Both the position numbers and the translations under genes were made by a program. A stretch of 64,000 nucleotides of DNA. It comes from an uncultured bacterium (GTDB taxonomy: Bacteria; Eisenbacteria; RBG-16-71-46; CAIMUX01). The notes beneath the pieces were generated by a model. It saw only the letters and a program-made list of their open reading frames with translations, made no database searches and was not told where the DNA came from. Below, piece after piece: positions 55,186-64,000 of the stretch. The stretch covers positions 74,389 through 138,388 of the forward strand of contig CAYJLF010000004.1 of NCBI GenBank assembly GCA_964371055.1, in the 5' to 3' direction. Within the stretch, counting starts at the first letter, position 1. Each line of letters begins with the position of its first letter.

Positions 55186-56898
55186 CTACTCGAGCCCCTC
55201 TCCGAGCGCCGTCTCCGCTGCCGCGACCAGCGCGCCGGAATCGACCAGGCGCTGCATCAGTTCGAGGTCGCGCGGCAGGAACCGATCTTCCTTCAGCATC
55301 GGGATTCCACCCGTTCGCACCGCGTCGCGAGTGGCGGCCAGCCCCGCTCCAAGCCGGCGCGGTCGGCCCAGGACATCCTCCTGCAGATCGAGCCCCTGCA
55401 CCGCCGCGAGGATCTCCAGCGCCAGGACCCGGCGCGTGTTGTCGAGGATGCGGCGCGCCTTGCGCGCGGCCCACAGCCCCATGCTGACATGATCCTCCTG
55501 GTCTCCCGAAGTCGGGATCGAATCGACGGAGGCGGGATGGGCCAGAGTCTTGTTCTCCGAGACGAGCGCCGCGGCCGTGTACTGCGTGATCATGAGGCCC
55601 GTATTGATGCCCGGTTCCCCGCCGGTCAGGTTCGACGGCAGCCCGTAGCTCAGTTCGGCGTTGAGCAGACGATAGAGCCGTCGCTCCGAGATGCTCGCGA
55701 GTTCGGCCAGGGCGATCGACGCGAAGTCGGCCGCCAGCGCCAGCGGCTGGCCGTGGAAATTCCCGCCGGAGAGAGCCCGGACGCCTTCCCGGGTGGAGAA
55801 GAGGAGCGGGTTGTCGGTCACGGCATTGAGCTCCCGGTCGGCGGTCGTCCGCGCAAAGAGAAGCGCATCCCGCGTCGCTCCGTGTACCTGGGGGGCGCAC
55901 CGGAGGCTGTAGGCGTCCTGCACGCGAGGGAGGTGCTCCGTCGACAGGCGGAAGCGGTGCAACGCATCGCGATCGATCCCTTCGGTCGCGAGGGCCGTCG
56001 TCTGAGCATCGACCTCCCGCCCGATCTTCGCCCGCAGGTACTCCAGACGCAGCGGCTCGCCGGTCGGCTCTCCCCCGCGCAGGAGGCGACGCAGGTTCCG
56101 CGCGACCGACTCCTGCCCGGGATGGCCGCGGACCACCTGCAGCCGCGCGTCGAAGGCATCTTCCTCCCCCAGAGTCGCCTCGAGGGTGAGTCCGGCCGCG
56201 AGATCCGCCAGTCGCACCAACGCCCCGGCGTCCTCGAGGAGGAGAACGAGGAGAGCCAGCATGAAACTGGTGCCGTTGGTGAGCGCCATCGCCTCCTTGG
56301 CCTCGAGGCGGAGCGGACGCGGCTGCTCGGACGGAGCGAGGTCGCCGAGCCGGACCGCAACCCCGTCCTTCAGGACGAGTGCGTCCGGCTCTCCCATCAG
56401 GACCGCGCCGACATGCGCGAGTTGCGCCAGATCGCCGCTGGCGCCCAAAGAGCCGATCTCCGGCACCCAGGGGTGGATGCCGCGGTTGAGCAGATCGACC
56501 AACGCCTCCACGAGCGCCGGGCGGACCCCGGAATGGCCCGACGCCAGGCTGTTGGCCCGGACGAGGATCGCCGCTCGCACCGCCTCCTCGGCGAGCGGGG
56601 GGCCGACCGCCGCGGCGTGCGCATCGATGTAGCGCTGTTGGAACTCCTCGATTCTGGCGGCGGGGATCTGGCGATTCTTGAGGACGCCGACGCCGGTGTT
56701 GAAGCCGTAGATCGCCGCGCCCGGGCCGCCGGGGGCGAGCCATTCCCGCTCCACGATCGCCCGCACACGGGCACACTCCTCGATCGACGAGCGCGCGATC
56801 GCCGCGAACGCCCGCTCTCCGCCCTGGCCTCGCGCCACGCGCACCACCTGCTCGCGATCGAGGGAGAATCCATCCAGCTCAACCGTACCGCCCGCCAT
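55186..56898 (-). CDS. hutH: Histidine / aromatic amino acid ammonia-lyase
   Basis: YGFNTG, GASGDL (MIO), KEAMALTNGT, QDAYSLRC, GGNFHG, QEDHVSMG. Confidence 0.88.
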   Translation of the reverse strand: MAGGTVELDGFSLDREQVVRVARGQGGERAFAAIARSSIEECARVRAIVEREWLAPGGPGAAIYGFNTGVGVLKNRQIPAARIEEFQQRYIDAHAAAVGPPLAEEAVRAAILVRANSLASGHSGVRPALVEALVDLLNRGIHPWVPEIGSLGASGDLAQLAHVGAVLMGEPDALVLKDGVAVRLGDLAPSEQPRPLRLEAKEAMALTNGTSFMLALLVLLLEDAGALVRLADLAAGLTLEATLGEEDAFDARLQVVRGHPGQESVARNLRRLLRGGEPTGEPLRLEYLRAKIGREVDAQTTALATEGIDRDALHRFRLSTEHLPRVQDAYSLRCAPQVHGATRDALLFARTTADRELNAVTDNPLLFSTREGVRALSGGNFHGQPLALAADFASIALAELASISERRLYRLLNAELSYGLPSNLTGGEPGINTGLMITQYTAAALVSENKTLAHPASVDSIPTSGDQEDHVSMGLWAARKARRILDNTRRVLALEILAAVQGLDLQEDVLGRPRRLGAGLAATRDAVRTGGIPMLKEDRFLPRDLELMQRLVDSGALVAAAETALGEGLE

Positions 56899-57067
56899 CG
56901 TCTCCACTCCTTCTCCAGCGACCCCCAAGACGGGCGAGGATAGGGATCGAAGGGCCCGCTGTCCACTCGCGGGGTCGATCGGCCGCGCGGCGCGACCCGC
57001 TCGCGGCAGAGGAGTGATCAAGTGGAACTCGAGGCAGCGCACCGGCTGCCGCAAACTCGGAGGCGTC

Positions 57068-58456
57068 TCAGCTCGCCGTCGGCGGGGAGGCTGGTCGCGT
57101 CCGCGCGGGGACCGCGAGGCGGCTGGCCAAGGGGAGGGGCGCCTCGAGAGATCCGCTCTGGATCGTCCAGACCGCTCCGAGGCCGGCCTCGATCCACGCG
57201 CTCTCCTGGCCCGGTCCCAGGCGCCTCGCGAGGCCTCGGAACCAGGGCCCCGGGCCGATCGCGGAGGCGAGCACGACCACCCGGAGGCTCGGTCCATGCA
57301 GGGCGAGCGCCTCGATCAGCATCGGCGTCGGTGCGTCCGCCAGGGCGACGAGTCCAGCCTGGCTGGAGCGGACCAGTTCCTCCAGTCCGCCGGGGCGCGC
57401 CAACTGCTCCGGGGCGACCGTTCCCACCCGTCCGGGCAGGCGGCTCCACTCGTAGCGAGGGAGTGACTCCACGACCCAGGCGATCTCCGGGCGTTCGGTC
57501 GCGCGACGAGCCAGCCAGGCGGCGAGGGCCGTCGTTCCCGGCCAGATCTCTCCTCGTTCGGATCCGTCGGCCGGAGCCAGCATGAGGGTCCAGCCCTCGC
57601 TCTGCGCCTGCAGTTCGTGGAAGAGAGGATCGGGCAGGCCGAGGTCGTACCAGGACGGGATGTCAGCCAGCGCGAGACTGGCGAGCACCCAGTCGCCGTC
57701 GGGGGCACGGTGCCGCACGGACCAGTACGATCCCCCCTCCGGATCGGGAGTGACGTGGACGCGGCGCGCGCGGCCCCGGCGCGCTCGTTCGTCGCTCCCC
57801 CGGCTGGAGGGGGCCAGTTCTTCCGCCCACGCCACGACGGCGCCGGCATCCGCGCCGACGATTTCTTCCAGCCCGGCCCGGTGGAGCACGGCGACGCGCG
57901 CCCCCGGGCCCAGTCGAAGCCTCCAGGCCCCCGGCCGCCGGAGCGCCGCGCGCACCGCATCGCGCCAGCCACGCCCTTTCTGGTCTGCGTCCCCCAGCGC
58001 GACGACCCGGCGGAAGGTCTCGGAAAGACCCGCCGCGCGTTCCTGCTTCTCCAGGAAGAGCTGGGCGGCCGACGGTCCCGCGCCGTCGTCCTCTCCGGTG
58101 GCCGCCATCTCGTCGATCTGCCGCGCTGCCTCCAGCAGGATGCTCTCGGTCGAGGCCTGGATGCGACGGTCGGGCGGGACCGGCCCGGGGGCGAACTCGA
58201 AGGTGCCGTCGCGCCACTGCACCGCCCGCAGCACGATGCTCTCCCCGTCCCGGAGCGTCTCGTCCGTCGCCGAAAGAAGCTGTCCCTCGTGGAACGTGAA
58301 GTAGGCGGTCCCCTCCGGCGTGCGGACCGTCAGGGTTCCGGTCTTTCTGTTCAGCATCAGGAACTGGCAGAGGTCGAAAAGCGAGACCGCGCCGAGGCGC
58401 CCGCCCAGGGCCGGCCACGTGATTCGCTCGCGGGTCGTCATCTCCCCCGGCGCCAT
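57068..58456 (-). CDS. DUF4388 domain fused to a degenerate PilT-like region
   Basis: GRLGAVSLFDLCQFL..NRKTG ... ILLEAARQIDE; C-terminal part aligns by eye with the neighbouring PilT. Confidence 0.75.
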   Translation of the reverse strand: MAPGEMTTRERITWPALGGRLGAVSLFDLCQFLMLNRKTGTLTVRTPEGTAYFTFHEGQLLSATDETLRDGESIVLRAVQWRDGTFEFAPGPVPPDRRIQASTESILLEAARQIDEMAATGEDDGAGPSAAQLFLEKQERAAGLSETFRRVVALGDADQKGRGWRDAVRAALRRPGAWRLRLGPGARVAVLHRAGLEEIVGADAGAVVAWAEELAPSSRGSDERARRGRARRVHVTPDPEGGSYWSVRHRAPDGDWVLASLALADIPSWYDLGLPDPLFHELQAQSEGWTLMLAPADGSERGEIWPGTTALAAWLARRATERPEIAWVVESLPRYEWSRLPGRVGTVAPEQLARPGGLEELVRSSQAGLVALADAPTPMLIEALALHGPSLRVVVLASAIGPGPWFRGLARRLGPGQESAWIEAGLGAVWTIQSGSLEAPLPLASRLAVPARTRPASPPTAS

Positions 58457-58469
58457 CGGATGTCTCCCC

Positions 58470-59549
58470 TCAGGCCGCTTCGGCCTGCGTGCCGCGCTCG
58501 AGGAGCGGGGCGAAGGTCTCTTTCACGTTCGCGGTCAGGTACGCCTCCTGCGGCGTGATCGCGCCGTCCTTCACCATCTGCATCAGGACATTGTCGAGCA
58601 GCAGCATGCCATCTTTGCGTCCGGTCTGCATCAAAGTCGGGATCTGGAAGGTCTTCTTCTCGCGGATCATGGCGGCCACCGCCATGTTTCCGAAGAGCAC
58701 CTCCACCACCGGGACGCGTCCCTGTCCGTCGGCCCGTCGCACGAGGCGTTGGGCGACGACGCCGCGGAGCGATTCGGCGAGCATGGCGCGGATCTGCGCC
58801 TGCTTCTCGTCGGCGAAGGCATCGATGATCCGGTCGATCGTCTGGGCCGCGCTGGCCGTATGCAGGGTCCCCAGCACGAGCTGCCCGGTCTCCGCCGCCG
58901 TGATCGCAAGCTGCATCGTCTCGAGGTCCCGCATCTCGCCGACGAGCACGATGTTCGGATCCTCGCGCAGGGCCGACCGCAGCGCCGCGGAGAAACTGCG
59001 CGCGGAGCGGCCCACTTCCCTCTGGTTCACGAGGCAGTTCAGGTTGGGATGCACATACTCGACCGGATCCTCGATCGTGATGATGTGCTTTCGCTGCGTC
59101 TCGTTGATGTGGTGGAGCAAGGCCGCCAGCGTGGTGCTCTTCCCACTCCCCGGCGGCCCGGTGACGACCACCAGCCCCTTGCGGTACTCGGCGAACCGCC
59201 GGATCTGGTCCGGCAAGCCGAGTTGTTCGAGAGAGAAGATGCGGGTCGGCAGGAGGCGAAACGCGCCGGCGATGCCGCGGATCTGCTCGTAGAGGTTGCA
59301 GCGGACCCGGACCTCGCCCGCGACGTCGTAGGCGAAGTCGATGTCCTTGTCCCGTTCGAACTGAACCCGCTGTTCGGGAGCCATCATCTCGTAGAGGAGC
59401 TGCCGGGCCTGGTCGCCGGTCAGCTCGGGCGCTTCGATGGGCCGGATGTCGCCCTGGACACGGAGCATCGGAGGGGCGCCGGTCGAGATATGGAGATCCG
59501 ACGCGCCCTGCTCCTTGACCATTTTGAAGATTGCGTCGATCCGCGCCAA
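58470..59549 (-). CDS. pilT: Type IV pilus retraction ATPase
   Basis: ASDLH, GPPGSGKSTT, TIEDPVE, LREDPN, GEMRD, AAETG, GTLHT. Confidence 0.95.
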   Translation of the reverse strand: MARIDAIFKMVKEQGASDLHISTGAPPMLRVQGDIRPIEAPELTGDQARQLLYEMMAPEQRVQFERDKDIDFAYDVAGEVRVRCNLYEQIRGIAGAFRLLPTRIFSLEQLGLPDQIRRFAEYRKGLVVVTGPPGSGKSTTLAALLHHINETQRKHIITIEDPVEYVHPNLNCLVNQREVGRSARSFSAALRSALREDPNIVLVGEMRDLETMQLAITAAETGQLVLGTLHTASAAQTIDRIIDAFADEKQAQIRAMLAESLRGVVAQRLVRRADGQGRVPVVEVLFGNMAVAAMIREKKTFQIPTLMQTGRKDGMLLLDNVLMQMVKDGAITPQEAYLTANVKETFAPLLERGTQAEAA

Positions 59550-59705
59550 CCGGCTGTCCTCCCGGAGGTTAGTCGTCCCCTTGACTATCGGCCGAAGTCG
59601 GGGCGGACTGAACCGCGACGGAACAAGCAGTTCGCCCCGCCGGCGGAGGAATCCGGCGGGGCGATTCTGGCGCGCGGGGGAGCGGACCCGCGCCGGGAGG
59701 CCAGG

Positions 59706-60158
59706 CTACTCGAAGTCGTCGAAGCGGGAGAGCTGGACCACACGGCTCTGGAGGAAGCCGCCGACCACTTGGGCCCCCGCGCCGACCCACATCCCTGCCG
59801 CCGGGTTCCAGGTCCGACGGTCTGCGAAGTTGCCAGCGAGAGCGGAGAGCGTCGCCTTGGAGGCGAGGAGCAAACCTTGCGGCTCGATTTCGATGTGCCG
59901 GCCCGCGGCATCCAGATCGACCGTAAGCGTTACCGTCACCGGCTCTTGGAGAGCACCCGCGGGGATCGTGAAAGCGACGCCCGCGGTTTCCACGGAACCT
60001 CCGGCCGGGCCGATCTCCGCCGAGGCCCGGCTCACGGCCAGGAGGCTCGGCGCGACGCCGGAGTCTGTGGGTGCCAGGATCTGCGACGCATCTTCACCGC
60101 AGCCGGAGACCATCCCCGCCACGAGCACGCTGAGTAGGACGACGAAGGTACGAAGCAT
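59706..60158 (-). CDS. Small lipoprotein with a ZU5-like region
   Basis: GGAGG RBS, lipobox VSGC, IGPAGG...IPAGAL...IEPQGL. Confidence 0.75.
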   Translation of the reverse strand: MLRTFVVLLSVLVAGMVSGCGEDASQILAPTDSGVAPSLLAVSRASAEIGPAGGSVETAGVAFTIPAGALQEPVTVTLTVDLDAAGRHIEIEPQGLLLASKATLSALAGNFADRRTWNPAAGMWVGAGAQVVGGFLQSRVVQLSRFDDFE

Positions 60159-60180
60159 GGTTCCTCCCGCCTGGTGAAGT

Positions 60181-60200
60181 CTGTCAACACTGGGTGACAG
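60181..60200. promoter_or_regulatory. Palindromic operator-like site
   Basis: CTGTCA-N8-TGACAG. Confidence 0.5.
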
Positions 60201-60216
60201 TCAAGCGGGATGCCAA
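60201..60216 (-). promoter_or_regulatory. Putative sigma54 promoter of the lipoprotein gene
   Basis: TTGGCATC-CCGC-TTGA versus consensus TGGCACG-N4-TTGC. Confidence 0.55.
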
Positions 60217-60621
60217 GGCCGAGCCGGGGATGGACGGCGGAACGAGGGCGGGACGCACTGCGCTCCACCGTGTTGTGTAACAATGTGTTATGTGCTGTGC
60301 GATCGCGGCGGGAATCGCTCCGGGCCGCTCCTCGCGTGGCGGGGGCAACCCAACTCCCCTTTGTTCGCGGGAGAAACGACGCGCTGGAGCGGGGCTCCGG
60401 GTCGACGTCCACCCGGAACCGCTTGGAAAGAAGAGAGATGTCTGAGCTGGCCGAGCCGAGCCGGGATCGGCGGATTCGCCCACGAAACAAGGCCCCCCGG
60501 CGGGAGCCGGGGGGCCTCTGGGTCCCGCCGTCCGGCAACTCTCGAGGGGCGGATGGATGCCGGAACCTGGCCGGGAACCGTCACACTGGGTCGCCCGTCG
60601 GCGGGCTTCGGAAGATCAGCG

Positions 60622-60669
60622 GCCGGGACCGCGACCGGGGGGCTCTCCGTGACCCGATCGCGTCCCGGC
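60622..60669 (-). terminator. Long GC-rich hairpin immediately after the small ORF
   Basis: GCCGGGACGCGATCGGG...CCCGGTCGCGGTCCCGGC; no U tract. Confidence 0.55.
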
Positions 60670-60675
60670 TTTCCG

Positions 60676-60744
60676 CTACCAGCCAGCCCTGCCCTTGCCG
60701 AGCCAGATGATCGCGAAGACGAAGAGCGATTCGATGATCAACAT
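60676..60744 (-). CDS. 22-aa hydrophobic peptide MLIIESLFVFAIIWLGKGRAGW
   Basis: AGGAGG 6 nt before ATG, GC3-biased codons, upstream sigma54 motif, downstream hairpin. Confidence 0.7.
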   Translation of the reverse strand: MLIIESLFVFAIIWLGKGRAGW

Positions 60745-60811
60745 GAGACACCTCCTGGTTTCGCAACTGCCGCCCCAGCTTGCTGGGAGCGCTCCTGAGT
60801 CGGGGGTGGTA

Positions 60812-60829
60812 ATGCACTCGTCGTGCCAA
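60812..60829 (-). promoter_or_regulatory. Sigma54 (-24/-12) promoter
   Basis: TTGGCACG-ACGA-GTGCAT, one mismatch to consensus; AT-rich upstream region with IHF-like TAACGTATTG at 60866-60875. Confidence 0.75.
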
Positions 60830-61053
60830 GACCGTGGCGAGCTCACATTCCCGGCGCACTAACTCTAACGTATTGTAATATAGTCCATTATGAAGGTAGG
60901 GCCGTGCCGGTCCGCATGGACTCGAATCGCCAACCAGAGACGTCTTTGTCGCATGGACTTGTCACCAGAGTTCGATAGGCGCCTAACTCTCACTTGAGGA
61001 ACATGATACGTGATAGTCACATTTACACGACAATTGTCATGTCGTCGAGTCAC

Positions 61054-62871
61054 TCAGGAGCGCTTATTGTTGTTCGTCCCGCTCCGTCCCGGACGCTCGA
61101 GTCCGTGCTGCTTGATCAGGTTGTGCAGGTGCTGGCGGCTGATCGACAACTCCGCGGCGGCCCGGGTGATGTTCCACTCCCGGCGATCGAGCACTCCGGT
61201 CAGAAGTTCACGCACGAATCGCGTGGCCGCCTCGTCGAGCGAGGTCCCTTCCGGCGTGTGCAGGCCGATCCTCTCCGCCGGGATCTCAGGCAACTGCTCG
61301 CGGACCTGCGCCGCATCGAGCGACTCGCCCGCCGGGACGAGGGCCGCGGCCCCGAAGATGACCGAGCGCAACTGACGGACGTTGCCGGGCCACGATTGCC
61401 GCAAAAGGATGCTCCGGGCGCGCGGCGTGATGCCCTGGATCGGTCGCCGGGCGGCGCGCATCGCCTCCACGAAGAAGTGATCGATGAGCAGGCCCAGATC
61501 ATCTCCCCGCTCTCGCAGCGGCGGGAGGTCGACGCGGACCCCCGCCAGGCGGTAGAAGAGATCCTCCCGAAACTCGCGCCGGCCGATCATCTCCGGCAGG
61601 GAGCGAAGCGTCGCGCTCACGATCCGCACGTCGGTCTGGCGCATTCCCTCCGTCTCTCCGACCCGCCGGAACTCGCCGGTCTCGAGAAAGCGGAGGAGTT
61701 TGGCCTGCAACTCGAGCGAGAGGTCCCCGATCTCGTCGAGGAAGAGGGTTCCGCGGTGCGCCTCTTCCACCAGACCCGGCGTGTCCTTGACCGCGCCCGT
61801 GAACGATCCGCGGGCGTAACCGAACATCTGGCTCTCGAGCAGCGCCGCCGGGATCGCGGCGCAGTTGACCGGCACGAAGGGACCCTCCTGGCGCAGCCCT
61901 TCGTAGTGCAGCGCGCGCGCGACGAGTTCCTTTCCGGTACCGGTCTCTCCGCAGATCAGGACCGGGATGTCGCTGTCCTTGATCAGTCGCACCTTCGCAT
62001 AGAGCGCCTGCATGACCGGCGAGACCCCGACCATGCGCGCGAATCCCGAACTCCGGCGCACCGTGTCGCGGAGCCCCTCGTTCTCCCGCTCCAGCAGCAG
62101 CCGGGTCTCCTCCTCGCGGCGGTGCAGGCGGGCGTTGGCCAGCGCGACGGCGGCGTGCGAGGCGAACGCTTCCAGCACCTCCTGCGCCGCGGCATCCGAT
62201 CTCAGAGTGCGAGCGCGGCTGTCGAGATAGAGGACTCCGACGGCGGCTCCGCGTTCGCGCAGCGGCACGCAGAGCGCCCAGAGGATCCGAAGTTCGTGCA
62301 GGGAACGAGCGGTGCCGAGATCGGCCATCTCGGCCAGGTCGTCCAGGCTGCTGTAGGGAAGGAGCCGGTTCTGCCGCAGGCACTCCCGCGCCAGCGTCTC
62401 CGAAATGCGGGCCGTCTCCGGGTCGATCGAGGCGCCCCCCTGGTCCCGACCGACGACGACGCGAAGCCGGCTCTCCCCCTCCTGCAGCAGGAGCAAGCCG
62501 CGCTCCGAGCCGGCGATGTCGATCGCCGCGTCGAGGATCGCGCCGCAGAGTATCTCAGGATCGAGGATGCCCGACAGATCGCGCGAGAGCTTCAGGACCT
62601 GTCGCAGGCCGTCCAGCTCGGACGTGTCCCGGGCCTGGCCCGGCGCCTGGAGATCGGCCGACAGCAGCAGGCTCCGCTCCGCCGGCGTGGTCCCCTCGCG
62701 CCGGGCATCGATGGCCTGCCGCCGCAACCACGACTCCCGGGAGACCGTGGCGCCTTTCGCGGGAACGGCGTCGCTCTCCGGCGTGGGGTCCAGTCGTGGG
62801 CGCGCCGCGCGCGCCGCCCCCTCATCCGCCCCCGGCGCCAGGTCGCGATCATCTTGCATGGCCAGCTCCAT
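61054..62871 (-). CDS. GAF-domain sigma54-dependent transcriptional activator
   Basis: GAF region (SERGLL...LCVPL...GVLYLD), GETGTGKE, GSFTGA, FLDEIG, WPGNVRQL, Fis HTH. Confidence 0.93.
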   Translation of the reverse strand: MELAMQDDRDLAPGADEGAARAARPRLDPTPESDAVPAKGATVSRESWLRRQAIDARREGTTPAERSLLLSADLQAPGQARDTSELDGLRQVLKLSRDLSGILDPEILCGAILDAAIDIAGSERGLLLLQEGESRLRVVVGRDQGGASIDPETARISETLARECLRQNRLLPYSSLDDLAEMADLGTARSLHELRILWALCVPLRERGAAVGVLYLDSRARTLRSDAAAQEVLEAFASHAAVALANARLHRREEETRLLLERENEGLRDTVRRSSGFARMVGVSPVMQALYAKVRLIKDSDIPVLICGETGTGKELVARALHYEGLRQEGPFVPVNCAAIPAALLESQMFGYARGSFTGAVKDTPGLVEEAHRGTLFLDEIGDLSLELQAKLLRFLETGEFRRVGETEGMRQTDVRIVSATLRSLPEMIGRREFREDLFYRLAGVRVDLPPLRERGDDLGLLIDHFFVEAMRAARRPIQGITPRARSILLRQSWPGNVRQLRSVIFGAAALVPAGESLDAAQVREQLPEIPAERIGLHTPEGTSLDEAATRFVRELLTGVLDRREWNITRAAAELSISRQHLHNLIKQHGLERPGRSGTNNNKRS

Positions 62872-62909
62872 TCTGTTGCTCCCGAGCGGACATAACGCCG
62901 GCCCGGGGA

Positions 62910-64000
62910 TCAGTCCTGTCCCAGATCATCAAGAAACTGCCGGATCGCCGGGCTCTCCAGGAAAAGAGAGGCGGGCGACTCATCGCCGAGCGACTCCACG
63001 ACTGCGGTGAGAACGGAACGGGCGGTCGCGTAGTGCTCCGCGGCCCGCCGCGGCGATCCCGAAAGTCGGAGAGCCTGCGCGAGACGCCAGTGGGCTCGCC
63101 AGGCCAGGAGCCAACGTTCCTGGGACTCGAGCAGCGTCACCGCCCGCTGCAGCCCCGCGGCGGCCTCATCGGTCCTCCCCGCCAGCAACGATCCCTCGCC
63201 GCCGGCGAGAGCCCGCAGACTCGCCGTCAAGGGGGAGATCGGTCCACCGGTGTGATCGAACTCGCTCAGCAACGCCTGGAGTCGATCGCTCTCCCCGGCC
63301 TCCGCCTCGCGCAGCGCCCAGTGCAGCAGGCTCTCCATGGCGTCTTCGCGGCCGCCGGTGGCGGTGAAGCGATCGACGACCTGACGGAAGGCGGCGCGCG
63401 CCTCGGCGGGCCGGCCGAGACCGGCGAGCGCCTCCGCGCGGGTCGCCTCGACCAAGAGGCGGTACCGCGGCACCGCATCGCCGAAACGTTCGAGGACCGC
63501 GTCGGCCTCCCGCAATCCCCGTTCGAGCTGCCCGGAGCGCACGAGGAGGTGGCTGCGATGCACCCCGACCCGGGCCAGCTCCCGCACTTCCCCCGAGAGC
63601 TGGCAGACGCCGGCCAGGTCGTGGTCGACCCGGACCGCACGCCCCAGCCATCCGCGCTCGATCAGAATCAGTCCGAGGTTGTACAGACTGACCGCGGCGC
63701 GATTCCAGACGCCGCGCGTCAGCCAGAATCCGGCGAGGTCCTCCAGCCAGGCCTGGCTTTGCCGCAGGCGTCCTTCCTGGAAGGCGATGCCGCAGAGCAG
63801 GGTCGGGACCACGCCTCGATGCGTGCGGAGCTCCGTCCGATGCACCAGATCCTCGAGCGGCGCCATGGCCGCGCGGGCCGCCTCGATCTCGCCCCGCTGG
63901 AAGCGGGCCAGGCCGAGTCCGTGCAGCGCATAGATGCGGTCCAGCAACGGGAGTTCCTCGGCCCGCGAGGCCGGGACCATCCACCACCGCATCGCCTCTT
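62910..64000 (-). CDS. TPR-repeat protein, C-terminal part (5' end outside the window)
   Basis: Successive TPR-like helices (ALHGLG, SLYNLG, WRAHWRLA); frame open to the window edge. Confidence 0.8.
   Translation of the reverse strand, partial: EAMRWWMVPASRAEELPLLDRIYALHGLGLARFQRGEIEAARAAMAPLEDLVHRTELRTHRGVVPTLLCGIAFQEGRLRQSQAWLEDLAGFWLTRGVWNRAAVSLYNLGLILIERGWLGRAVRVDHDLAGVCQLSGEVRELARVGVHRSHLLVRSGQLERGLREADAVLERFGDAVPRYRLLVEATRAEALAGLGRPAEARAAFRQVVDRFTATGGREDAMESLLHWALREAEAGESDRLQALLSEFDHTGGPISPLTASLRALAGGEGSLLAGRTDEAAAGLQRAVTLLESQERWLLAWRAHWRLAQALRLSGSPRRAAEHYATARSVLTAVVESLGDESPASLFLESPAIRQFLDDLGQD

Follow-up and report, generated by a model that had tools for sequence, protein, structure and literature searches.

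A sigma-54-linked micropeptide of Candidatus Eisenbacteria shares its C-terminal tail with small lipoproteins of predicted ZU5 fold

This study concerns a small gene module at the end of a 64,000-nucleotide (nt) stretch of DNA, hereafter the window, from an uncultured bacterium of Candidatus Eisenbacteria (contig CAYJLF010000004.1, positions 74,389 to 138,388). Four co-oriented units, all on the minus strand, lie there: a gene for a kinase-like protein with a TPR region, a gene for a GAF-type sigma-54 activator, a gene for a micropeptide behind a sigma-54-type promoter (P1), and a gene for a small lipoprotein behind a second, sigma-54-like site (P2). Every element that the first-pass annotation, made from the sequence alone, had described at this place was found. 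The regulatory half of the module is of a known kind, namely a GAF-type enhancer-binding protein on adjacent sigma-54 promoters, paired with a kinase-like or STAND-like TPR protein. The output half is new: a micropeptide that is conserved only in the tail, GRAGW, which paralogous ZU5 lipoproteins carry in cis.

The micropeptide belongs to a family for which 31 distinct members of 19-26 amino acids (aa) were collected; 33 sequences passed the filter, and two of these (L116 and L132) were judged non-members by eye. All follow one plan, with a methionine, 13-19 mostly hydrophobic residues that frequently include GG near the start, and a terminal (G)RAGW before the stop codon. RAGW is invariant in 31 of 31 peptides, one of which carries two extra residues behind the tail, and the hydrophobic body varies freely between members. 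The codons of the tail vary as well. Counted over 36 sequences, which include the two probable chance open reading frames (ORFs) L116 and L132, the alanine of the tail is encoded by GCT 9, GCA 8, GCC 10 and GCG 9 times, the arginine by five different codons, and all three stop codons are used. Given that an invariant RAGW is written in varying codons, selection acts on the amino-acid sequence and not on an RNA element. A strong ribosome-binding site (RBS) precedes every copy, and GCCG directly follows the stop codon in many of them. The sole positive charges of the peptide are next to its C-terminus, and inspection by eye revealed neither a charged N-region nor a consistent small-x-small site before GRAGW.

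The peptide gene forms a stand-alone short transcription unit, as judged from its own promoter, its RBS and a hairpin followed by a run of T. In the window, the hairpin has perfect 12-nt arms (60490-60501 and 60506-60517) and a T-rich tail; in most peptide loci a GC hairpin with a T run is found 100-170 nt after the stop codon (by eye, and by terminator scan for the window). The 100-170-nt 3' region before the terminator (60518-60675 in the window) contains long hairpins that are conserved between close relatives, such as L042 and L043, and the transcript may have a second function at the RNA level. A search of positions 59500-61200 against Rfam found no known RNA family, the only hit being a 28-nt terminator-like fragment below the gathering score.

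The unit is present in RNA libraries. In four of four metatranscriptome runs, RNA contigs of 236-298 nt lie over the peptide unit (60525-60781, 60548-60783, 60533-60789 and 60450-60747) with 0-6 differences, covering the ORF together with its 5' leader and the 3' region to or just beyond the hairpin, and beginning 24-47 nt downstream of P1. The lipoprotein ORF is represented by RNA contigs of 266-273 nt within 59847-60157 in two of the four runs. No RNA contig covers 60824-61100 or, one small piece excepted, 60161-60449, which is not evidence of silence. The presence of the peptide unit in these libraries lends modest support to its expression.

As a check, the first-pass annotation had proposed a search of homologous loci for a sigma-54 promoter, RBS and short ORF beyond the activator gene, and this layout was indeed found. 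Within 1.5 kb downstream of the activator, TGGCAY-N5-NTGC, an RBS and an ORF of 19-26 aa with RAGW-stop at its end occur together in eight of 30 loci (seven relatives and the window), and five of the seven relatives have a second such promoter before a lipoprotein of about 155 aa. A motif scan that did not require the promoter placed the peptide ORF in 13 loci. When loci were extended by 19-kb flanks, it was present in 14 of 18, sometimes in two or three copies.

The distribution of the peptide was followed through 206 genomes of the phylum, in which f1, f2, f3, f4, f7 and f17 denote families and g8 a genus within Candidatus Eisenbacteria. A looser pattern matched 18 of these genomes before inspection. 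After inspection, true peptides were retained in eight of 12 f1 genomes, in addition to that of the window, and in five of six f3 genomes, with none in the 15 f2 genomes and none elsewhere in the phylum by this pattern; peptides in G008 (f1), G015 (f4) and G037 (f7) were found by other routes. Matches in G074, G082 and G084 were attributed to chance, and two in G006 were the C-termini of lipoproteins. G006 possesses the module lipoprotein, and no micropeptide was detected in it. A strict promoter-plus-tail scan of one genome per species, over 185,579 species, gave 35 loci, of which seven are real and the remaining 28 are chance matches with no hydrophobic ORF. Four of the seven belong to Candidatus Eisenbacteria, and the peptides of L064, L084 and L067 are identical to those of the phylum genomes G004 and G021.

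The link between peptide and activator was confirmed independently in metagenomes, where loci were found by the peptide alone and the activator was found nearby. A scan keyed only on RBS, ATG and tail yielded 55 loci, 12 of them real and located on eight distinct contigs. An activator homologue lies within about 2.5 kb of the peptide in seven of the eight, the eighth contig being only 2.1 kb long. Five of these seven are full-length activator matches just upstream of the peptide; in L109 a partial match is divergently placed at the contig end, and in L127 an AAA+-only match lies downstream of the peptide. Most of the other metagenome matches were one recurrent 67-aa ORF ending in GRAGW (L110-L114, L117 and about 25 further metagenome loci), which comes from gut samples, has about 50% G+C, is not hydrophobic and was rejected as an unrelated chance match.

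Genus g8 has a distinct arrangement, with two or three peptide genes in tandem behind one TGGCAC site (L106-L108, corresponding to G010, G007 and G012; for example L107:8460-8890). These arrays lie about 280 nt upstream of a gene for an extracytoplasmic function (ECF) sigma factor and a gene for a CarboxypepD_reg-VWA-YfbK_C protein of 969-1058 aa, and far from the kinase-like/TPR protein. A class I aminoacyl-tRNA synthetase gene (Pfam tRNA-synt_1) is situated opposite the arrays.

Table 1. Features of the module and its nearest neighbour (positions in the window).
Feature	Position	Strand	Evidence or remark
Kinase-like/TPR gene, C-terminal 362 aa in the window	62910..64000	-	TPR_2 and TPR_MalT matches; open at the window end
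GAF-sigma54 activator gene, 605 aa	61054..62871	-	Pfam domains, AAA+ motifs
AT-rich spacer, 225 nt, with candidate activator-binding sites	60829..61053	-	G+C 50%
P1, sigma-54-type promoter, TGGCAC-N5-GTGCA (TGGCACgacgaGTGCA)	60828..60813	-	Sequence
Micropeptide RBS, AGGAGGTG	60756..60749	-	Sequence
Micropeptide gene, 22 aa, product MLIIESLFVFAIIWLGKGRAGW	ATG at 60744, stop ends 60676	-	ORF
Intrinsic-terminator-like hairpin after the micropeptide unit	60490..60517	-	Terminator scan, repeats
P2, sigma-54-like site, TGGCAT-N5-TTGAC (TGGCATcccgcTTGAC)	60215..60200	-	Sequence
Lipoprotein gene, 150 aa, ZU5-like domain, lipobox VSGC	59706..60158	-	Sequence, alignment
pilT	58470..59549	-	T2SSE, E 2.9e-50

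The tail of the micropeptide recurs on lipoproteins. In the window's own genome, ten ORFs end in RAGW-stop, and the only real-looking genes among them are the peptide and two lipoproteins (C2 and C18), both of which end in HFS-x-Y-x(2-4)-GRAGW. The C18 protein has nine database relatives, and HFS and RAGW are kept in nine of nine. The lipoprotein of the window aligns with the domain of these larger, tailed paralogues and ends 2-3 residues past the HFS position, with no tail; it reads RFD at that position, so that the HF/S autoproteolysis motif is absent there. A profile of tailed and tail-less lipoproteins retrieved 11968 cluster representatives at E <= 0.001, of which 1801 remain at E <= 1e-10. 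Among 157 proteins of the family, 69 end in RAGW and 20 more in a close W variant; HFS stands within the last 30 residues of 134.

Within the phylum, the pattern HFS...RAGW-stop is found in nine of 12 f1, four of six f3, one of one f4, one of one f7 and six of 89 f17 genomes, in none of the 15 f2 genomes and nowhere else; the reversed-pattern control gave 0 matches. Families f1, f3, f4 and f7 therefore hold both classes of GRAGW carrier, peptide and tailed lipoprotein, and f2 holds neither (0/15). A sigma54-like site is located 55-80 nt before the ATG in four of six tailed lipoprotein genes, and is canonical in two (L167 left out). Inspection by eye of translated ORFs around the C2 and C18 genes, for which no domain search was made, gave no shared regulator or partner. 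In G006, the segments C2:17653-17809 and C7:1000296-1000452 carry an identical tailed-lipoprotein sequence, through either a recent duplication event or a duplication in the assembly.

Structural modelling points to the fold of this lipoprotein family. Of 56 tailed members, 29 match Pfam ZU5 (best E 6.6e-7), and the lipoprotein of the window matches it weakly (E 0.12); neither Pfam nor NCBIfam has a specific family for the window lipoprotein or for the 56. The NCBIfam model 'invert_tail' matched eight of the 56 (best E 0.0011), below cut-off and on the N-terminal signal and lipobox (3-41 and 6-43 in the two inspected), and was set aside as spurious. A first structure model, built on nine sequences, was poor (pLDDT 50.6), and its fold matches were superseded by those of a model built on 132 sequences. 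This AlphaFold2 (AF2) model of the C18 paralogue, P0001, has a mean pLDDT of 84.4, with 94-98 over residues 90-208 and 88 in the last block, and shows an ordered strand (200-205) after HFS. With Foldseek, it gave 14 PDB matches at E <= 0.001 (best E 4.3e-5), and the 12 listed are ankyrin ZU5 domains or spectrin complexes. VIA-align superposed it on the ankyrin-B ZU5 domain with Z 12.5 and rmsd 2.6 over 119 residues; the Z scores were 8.8 for UNC5b, 8.5-9.3 for GAIN domains and 7.4 for the NLRP1 FIIND. According to the model, the tailed lipoproteins have the ZU5 beta-sandwich fold. The lipoprotein of the window is described here as ZU5-like, on the basis of its alignment and its weak Pfam match.

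The comparison with ZO-1 bears on the function of the tail. The ZO-1 ZU5 domain alone aligns to residues 86-198 of P0001, and the domain with its bound partner peptide aligns up to 207, these ranges being only the first and last aligned residues. The strand after HFS and the tail of P0001 would therefore sit where ZO-1 is filled in trans, and the lipoprotein of the window terminates at that same point.

With regard to the regulatory half, the activator has, by Pfam, a GAF_2 domain (104-244), a Sigma54_activat domain (PF00158, 281-447, E 3.7e-63), AAA_lid_14 and HTH_8 (554-584), and no receiver domain. Its AAA+ motifs are intact (Walker A GETGTGKE, Walker B FLDEIG), and the GAFTGA loop is present as GSFTGA, a single conservative change. 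To judge from these motifs, the C-terminal helix-turn-helix (HTH) and the sigma-54 encoded in the genome, the protein is an enhancer-binding protein. Its closest NCBIfam model is NorR, with a score below the cut-off, and none of the NCBIfam equivalogs scores above its threshold. In the 40 related genomes that were searched, full-length orthologues were found at 36-56% identity.

The genome has two Sigma54_DBD (rpoN) genes, both outside the window (C8:103706-104173 and C9:120131-120598), and 37 Sigma54_activat matches, of which 31 are strong (E below 1e-50). The strict consensus promoter word nevertheless occurs once and the relaxed word eight times in the whole 5.38-Mb genome. Given two rpoN genes and 31 strong activators, yet so few consensus words, promoter recognition by sigma-54 may differ here from the textbook consensus. 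The P1 word by itself is not significant, eight relaxed matches in 5.38 Mb standing against about 16 expected by a hand estimate from base composition. It is conservation, and not the promoter word, that places the micropeptide unit beyond chance.

P1 has the -24 GG and the -12 GC with 10 bases between them and lies 68 nt before the micropeptide ATG. In most loci, TGGCAY stands at a near-constant 136-149 nt before the arginine codon of the peptide. The position of P2 is also conserved: in the window, in L034-L039 and in L046 and L047, TGGCAY or TGGCGC precedes the lipoprotein ATG by 55-75 nt, and several of these loci have a canonical -12 element, with versions in relatives such as TGGCAYCGAAGCTGCC and TGGCGC-N5-TTGC. 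TTGA or TTAC in place of TTGC at -12 was seen in several well-placed sites, namely P2 of the window (60200-60204), the C18 lipoprotein (upstream of 140903), L033, L042 and the g8 arrays (L091-L093 were also noted). Such sites may represent a variant of the -12 element, for which the second RpoN is a possible reader.

The spacer between the activator gene and P1 differs in composition from the window as a whole (69% G+C). It contains TGTCG/CGACA words, small palindromes and CGCATGGACT as a direct repeat. Upstream of 16 peptide promoters (240 nt each), CGACA/TGTCG was observed 34 times against 7.6 expected from shuffles (z about 10), where the shuffles preserve base composition only and the loci are related; GCGAC and TGACA are likewise enriched, and by eye the CGACA/TGTCG words are often arranged as small palindromes. 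The enrichment is supportive rather than decisive for these words as putative activator sites. The NifA-type TGT-N10-ACA was rejected as the upstream activating site, with only two found upstream of the 16 promoters.

The TPR gene, which the first-pass annotation saw only in part and proposed to recover, extends about 2.3 kb past the window end. Complete in the genome, it encodes 1140 aa and combines a Pkinase domain (41-271) with a TPR region that resembles MalT; Pfam found no HTH in it. The catalytic loop reads AQLDLCPDQ here and [AH][QH]LDLKPxQ in orthologues. Its asparagine is replaced by glutamine in all orthologues, and its lysine by cysteine in this genome, which suggests that the protein may be an atypical kinase or a pseudokinase. 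The gene adjoins that of the activator in most homologous loci. In five f17 genomes with tailed lipoproteins, the query was matched only to about residue 417 (best E 4.8e-24), that is, over kinase-domain sequence, and the TPR region had no match. Since GRAGW-tailed lipoproteins occur in genomes that lack an orthologue of the kinase-like/TPR protein, the tail is independent of that protein.

On the other side of the module, pilT is a conserved neighbour that probably lies outside the regulated unit, and a GC hairpin stands between it and the lipoprotein gene (by eye; the terminator scan did not call it). In family f1 loci, pilT, a DUF4388 protein (462 aa) and an aromatic amino acid lyase keep their order beside the module; in the window this stretch occupies 55186-59549, and the lyase has 703 aa with a Pfam match only from residue 146. 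Past the window end, on the 5' side of the kinase-like/TPR gene (L105:12739-17897), there are an FG-GAP repeat protein of 600 aa, a GT2-like glycosyltransferase and an 839-aa protein that was called subtilase-like on reading its translation by eye. Beside the activator in L044, L145 and L163, a glycosyltransferase-like ORF recurs together with an unannotated one of about 600 aa.

We tentatively read the module as a lineage-specific sigma-54 unit, found in some Candidatus Eisenbacteria, in which the activator would drive P1 and P2 and the membrane peptide would supply, in trans, the tail of a truncated ZU5 lipoprotein; we regard this as possible rather than probable. The activator, probably gated by its own GAF domain and by the adjacent kinase-like/TPR protein, would bind the TGTCG/CGACA-rich sites of the spacer and turn on both promoters. 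From P1, a short stand-alone transcript would yield the hydrophobic and probably membrane-embedded peptide ending in GRAGW-COOH. From P2 would come the small lipoprotein, the ZU5 domain of which ends just past the position where the paralogues have HFS-x-Y-x-GRAGW. Peptide and tail-less lipoprotein would make contact as a split ZU5 module, and the lipoprotein would be tethered or completed at the membrane. In the paralogues, which have the tail in cis, it may be released by autoproteolysis at HF/S. We favour the split arrangement because of Rosetta-stone logic, the same tail being fused to the domain in the paralogues, and because of the ZO-1 precedent.

Several observations weigh against this reading. 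The main difficulty is one of topology: positive charges favour the cytoplasmic side (the positive-inside rule), and the C-proximal charges of the peptide favour a cytoplasmic tail, whereas the lipoprotein domain would be periplasmic. In P2 of the window, the -24 element TGGCAT is present, but the -12 element reads TTGA and not TTGC. The module lipoproteins of f3 end in HFSxYRIxLxE, with a full last strand, and are not truncated like that of the window. Peptide and lipoprotein also do not always travel together: the g8 arrays adjoin ECF sigma and VWA genes rather than a lipoprotein gene, L046, L047 and L049 have the tail-less lipoprotein without an adjacent peptide, and L033, L040, L041 and L043 have the peptide with no lipoprotein detected nearby. 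Finally, all four RNA runs are from one study, their contigs show neither strand nor ends, and RNA libraries can contain DNA.

The first-pass annotation had interpreted the locus as a peptide-signalling module analogous to RRNPP systems. A real, conserved module of four units was borne out, whereas the analogy itself, with a secreted peptide and a TPR receptor for it, has been weakened. In the form that we weighed, the GRAGW end would bind the TPR or the GAF domain, from the membrane or after release and import, and so close a feedback loop; we consider this unlikely. TPR domains bind C-terminal peptides, the genes of TPR protein, activator and peptide are adjacent over four families, and an invariant C-terminal pentapeptide together with multi-copy arrays fits a dosage-dependent ligand. 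The C-proximal charges would place the tail in the compartment of the TPR and GAF domains, and Opp-like binding-protein genes are present elsewhere in the genome. However, none of the latter is on the window's contig, and no peptide exporter, processing protease or Opp-type importer was seen among the annotated flanking genes. The tail is invariant over four families and has not diversified between lineages, and the peptide has neither a signal-peptide N-region nor, by eye, a consistent signal-peptidase site. GRAGW also terminates exported ZU5-type lipoproteins, including those of the five f17 genomes that have no orthologue of the TPR protein, and the g8 arrays are distant from that protein, which is itself kinase-like and MalT/STAND-like rather than an HTH or phosphatase receptor.

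The occurrence of the tail on two unrelated scaffolds, nearly always at the extreme C-terminus, could also mean that GRAGW-COOH is a tag read by a third party in the envelope, such as a PDZ-type protease, a sorting factor or a receptor. On this view, the micropeptide would be a membrane-bound activator or competitor and might, for example, relay the sigma-54 signal to the ECF sigma system beside the g8 arrays. The short distance between these arrays and the ECF sigma and CarboxypepD_reg-VWA-YfbK_C genes agrees with this proposal, as does the existence of tailed lipoproteins without the regulators of the module. No candidate reader protein was found, however, and the conflict of compartment between the two GRAGW carriers is the same as for the split module, so that we judge this explanation to be rather improbable.

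A combination of these ideas is more improbable again. GRAGW-COOH would be a new bacterial peptide signal with two sources, the directly translated micropeptide and a decapeptide released from ZU5 lipoproteins at HF/S, and would be sensed by the kinase-like/TPR protein that gates the activator; further peptide and lipoprotein would then be transcribed through sigma-54, giving a diderm a self-amplifying circuit for envelope damage or for communication between cells. Such a two-source signal would be mechanistically parallel to RRNPP systems and to the tethered agonists of adhesion GPCRs, and unrelated to both. In the manner of the GAIN Stachel or a FIIND fragment, the lipoprotein decapeptide would be held and then released after autoproteolysis.

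The size of the peptide (19-26 aa), its hydrophobic body, its own promoter and terminator and its tandem copies would also suit a membrane-active stress peptide, type I toxin-like or membrane-modulating, with the tail as an interfacial anchor only. This is very unlikely, as five invariant C-terminal residues that are common to a lipoprotein family exceed the needs of an anchor; Rfam found nothing in the region, and no antisense RNA or antitoxin was seen, although none was searched for. Least likely of all is a ribosome-arrest or leader peptide, in which R-A-G-W-stop would stall the ribosome like RAGP or RAPP and control downstream expression: the tail does share R-A-G with the first three residues of SecM RAGP, and RAPP-like motifs are described near the C-termini of small membrane or secretory arrest peptides in PMC12992588, but the A-site residue would be Trp and not Pro or Gly, and in that paper arrest was lost or became weaker when the final residues of the motif were changed. 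Moreover, 100-170 nt and the gene's own terminator follow the ORF, the next gene has its own putative promoter, tandem copies occur, strong arrest would be costly on a motif that terminates at least 69 full-length lipoproteins, and a chain of 19-22 aa would presumably lie wholly within the exit tunnel, out of reach of any force that might pull it free.

Few conserved bacterial micropeptides have both a clear regulator and a clear candidate partner, and the present one brings to light a large family, as yet without a name, of small lipoproteins with the ZU5 fold. The HFS motif and the GRAGW end of that family suggest autoproteolytic release or docking of a short tail, a mechanism that animals use in GAIN, FIIND and PIDD proteins. 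The module also gives a first entry point to sigma-54 regulation in Eisenbacteria, an uncultured phylum, and to apparent variants of the -12 element there. If the tail were indeed a signal, it would represent a new class of peptide signalling in diderms.

The first-pass annotation knew of no described system with this layout. In agreement with this, the peptide had no match in Pfam, NCBIfam or the literature searched (main texts), and a literature search on GRAGW or RAGW lipoproteins, on sigma-54 in Eisenbacteria and on sigma-54-linked small membrane proteins returned nothing relevant within the same scope. Parts of the module can nevertheless be compared with known systems. The activator shares with NorR- and NifA-type GAF activators the order of GAF domain, AAA+ sigma-54 interaction domain and HTH_8, as well as adjacent promoters with repeated words upstream, PspF being a receiver-less case. 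It differs from them in being paired with a kinase-like/TPR protein rather than with a sensor kinase, and in its putative targets, a micropeptide and a ZU5 lipoprotein.

In RRNPP systems (Rap-Phr, PlcR-PapR, AimR-AimP and Rgg-SHP), the TPR receptor is cytoplasmic and carries an HTH or phosphatase output, and a pro-peptide with an export signal is matured to a C-terminal oligopeptide. The module resembles them in having a TPR protein beside a very small gene for a short hydrophobic peptide with a conserved C-terminus. Unlike in RRNPP systems, the TPR region shares its protein with a Pkinase-like domain, no signal-like N-region was seen by eye in the peptide, lipoproteins have the same invariant tail, tailed proteins occur without the TPR protein, and the host is a diderm outside Firmicutes. 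In the MgrB-PhoQ pair, a small membrane protein feeds back on its own regulator. The micropeptide is likewise a very small hydrophobic protein that would be controlled by a neighbouring regulator, but the module has no membrane-bound sensor, and there is no sequence relationship.

The RAPP-like arrest core is a C-terminal R-A/G-P-P, RAGP or RAPG with Pro or Gly at the A-site, as given in PMC12992588. Peptides of this class are encoded directly ahead of the gene that they control and share its transcript; in the window a terminator hairpin and P2 lie between the micropeptide and the next gene, and in g8 about 280 nt lie between the arrays and the ECF sigma gene. Arrest peptides of this kind are, like the micropeptide, small hydrophobic proteins with R-A-G near the C-terminus. 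They differ from it in that the micropeptide has a Trp-stop end, a stand-alone terminated transcript, several copies and a motif that is common to full-length lipoproteins.

The closest parallels to the output half are found among ZU5, GAIN and FIIND domains. In PMC3210808, PIDD is described as cleaving itself at HF/S right after each ZU5 domain, and CARD8 and NLRP1 as cleaving at SF/S, the fragments staying associated. Bacterial ZU5 autopeptidase domains are reported from polymorphic toxins and large surface proteins in the portion of PMC3482391 consulted, which does not mention a tailed lipoprotein form. In contrast to all of these, the proteins described here are small bacterial lipoproteins of 150-320 aa, in which only about ten residues, ending in GRAGW, follow the putative cut site, with no UPA, death or 7TM domain. 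What they have in common with the known domains is the predicted ZU5 fold and the HFS at the domain end of the tailed lipoproteins, and ZO-1 provides the example of a ZU5 strand that is supplied in trans.

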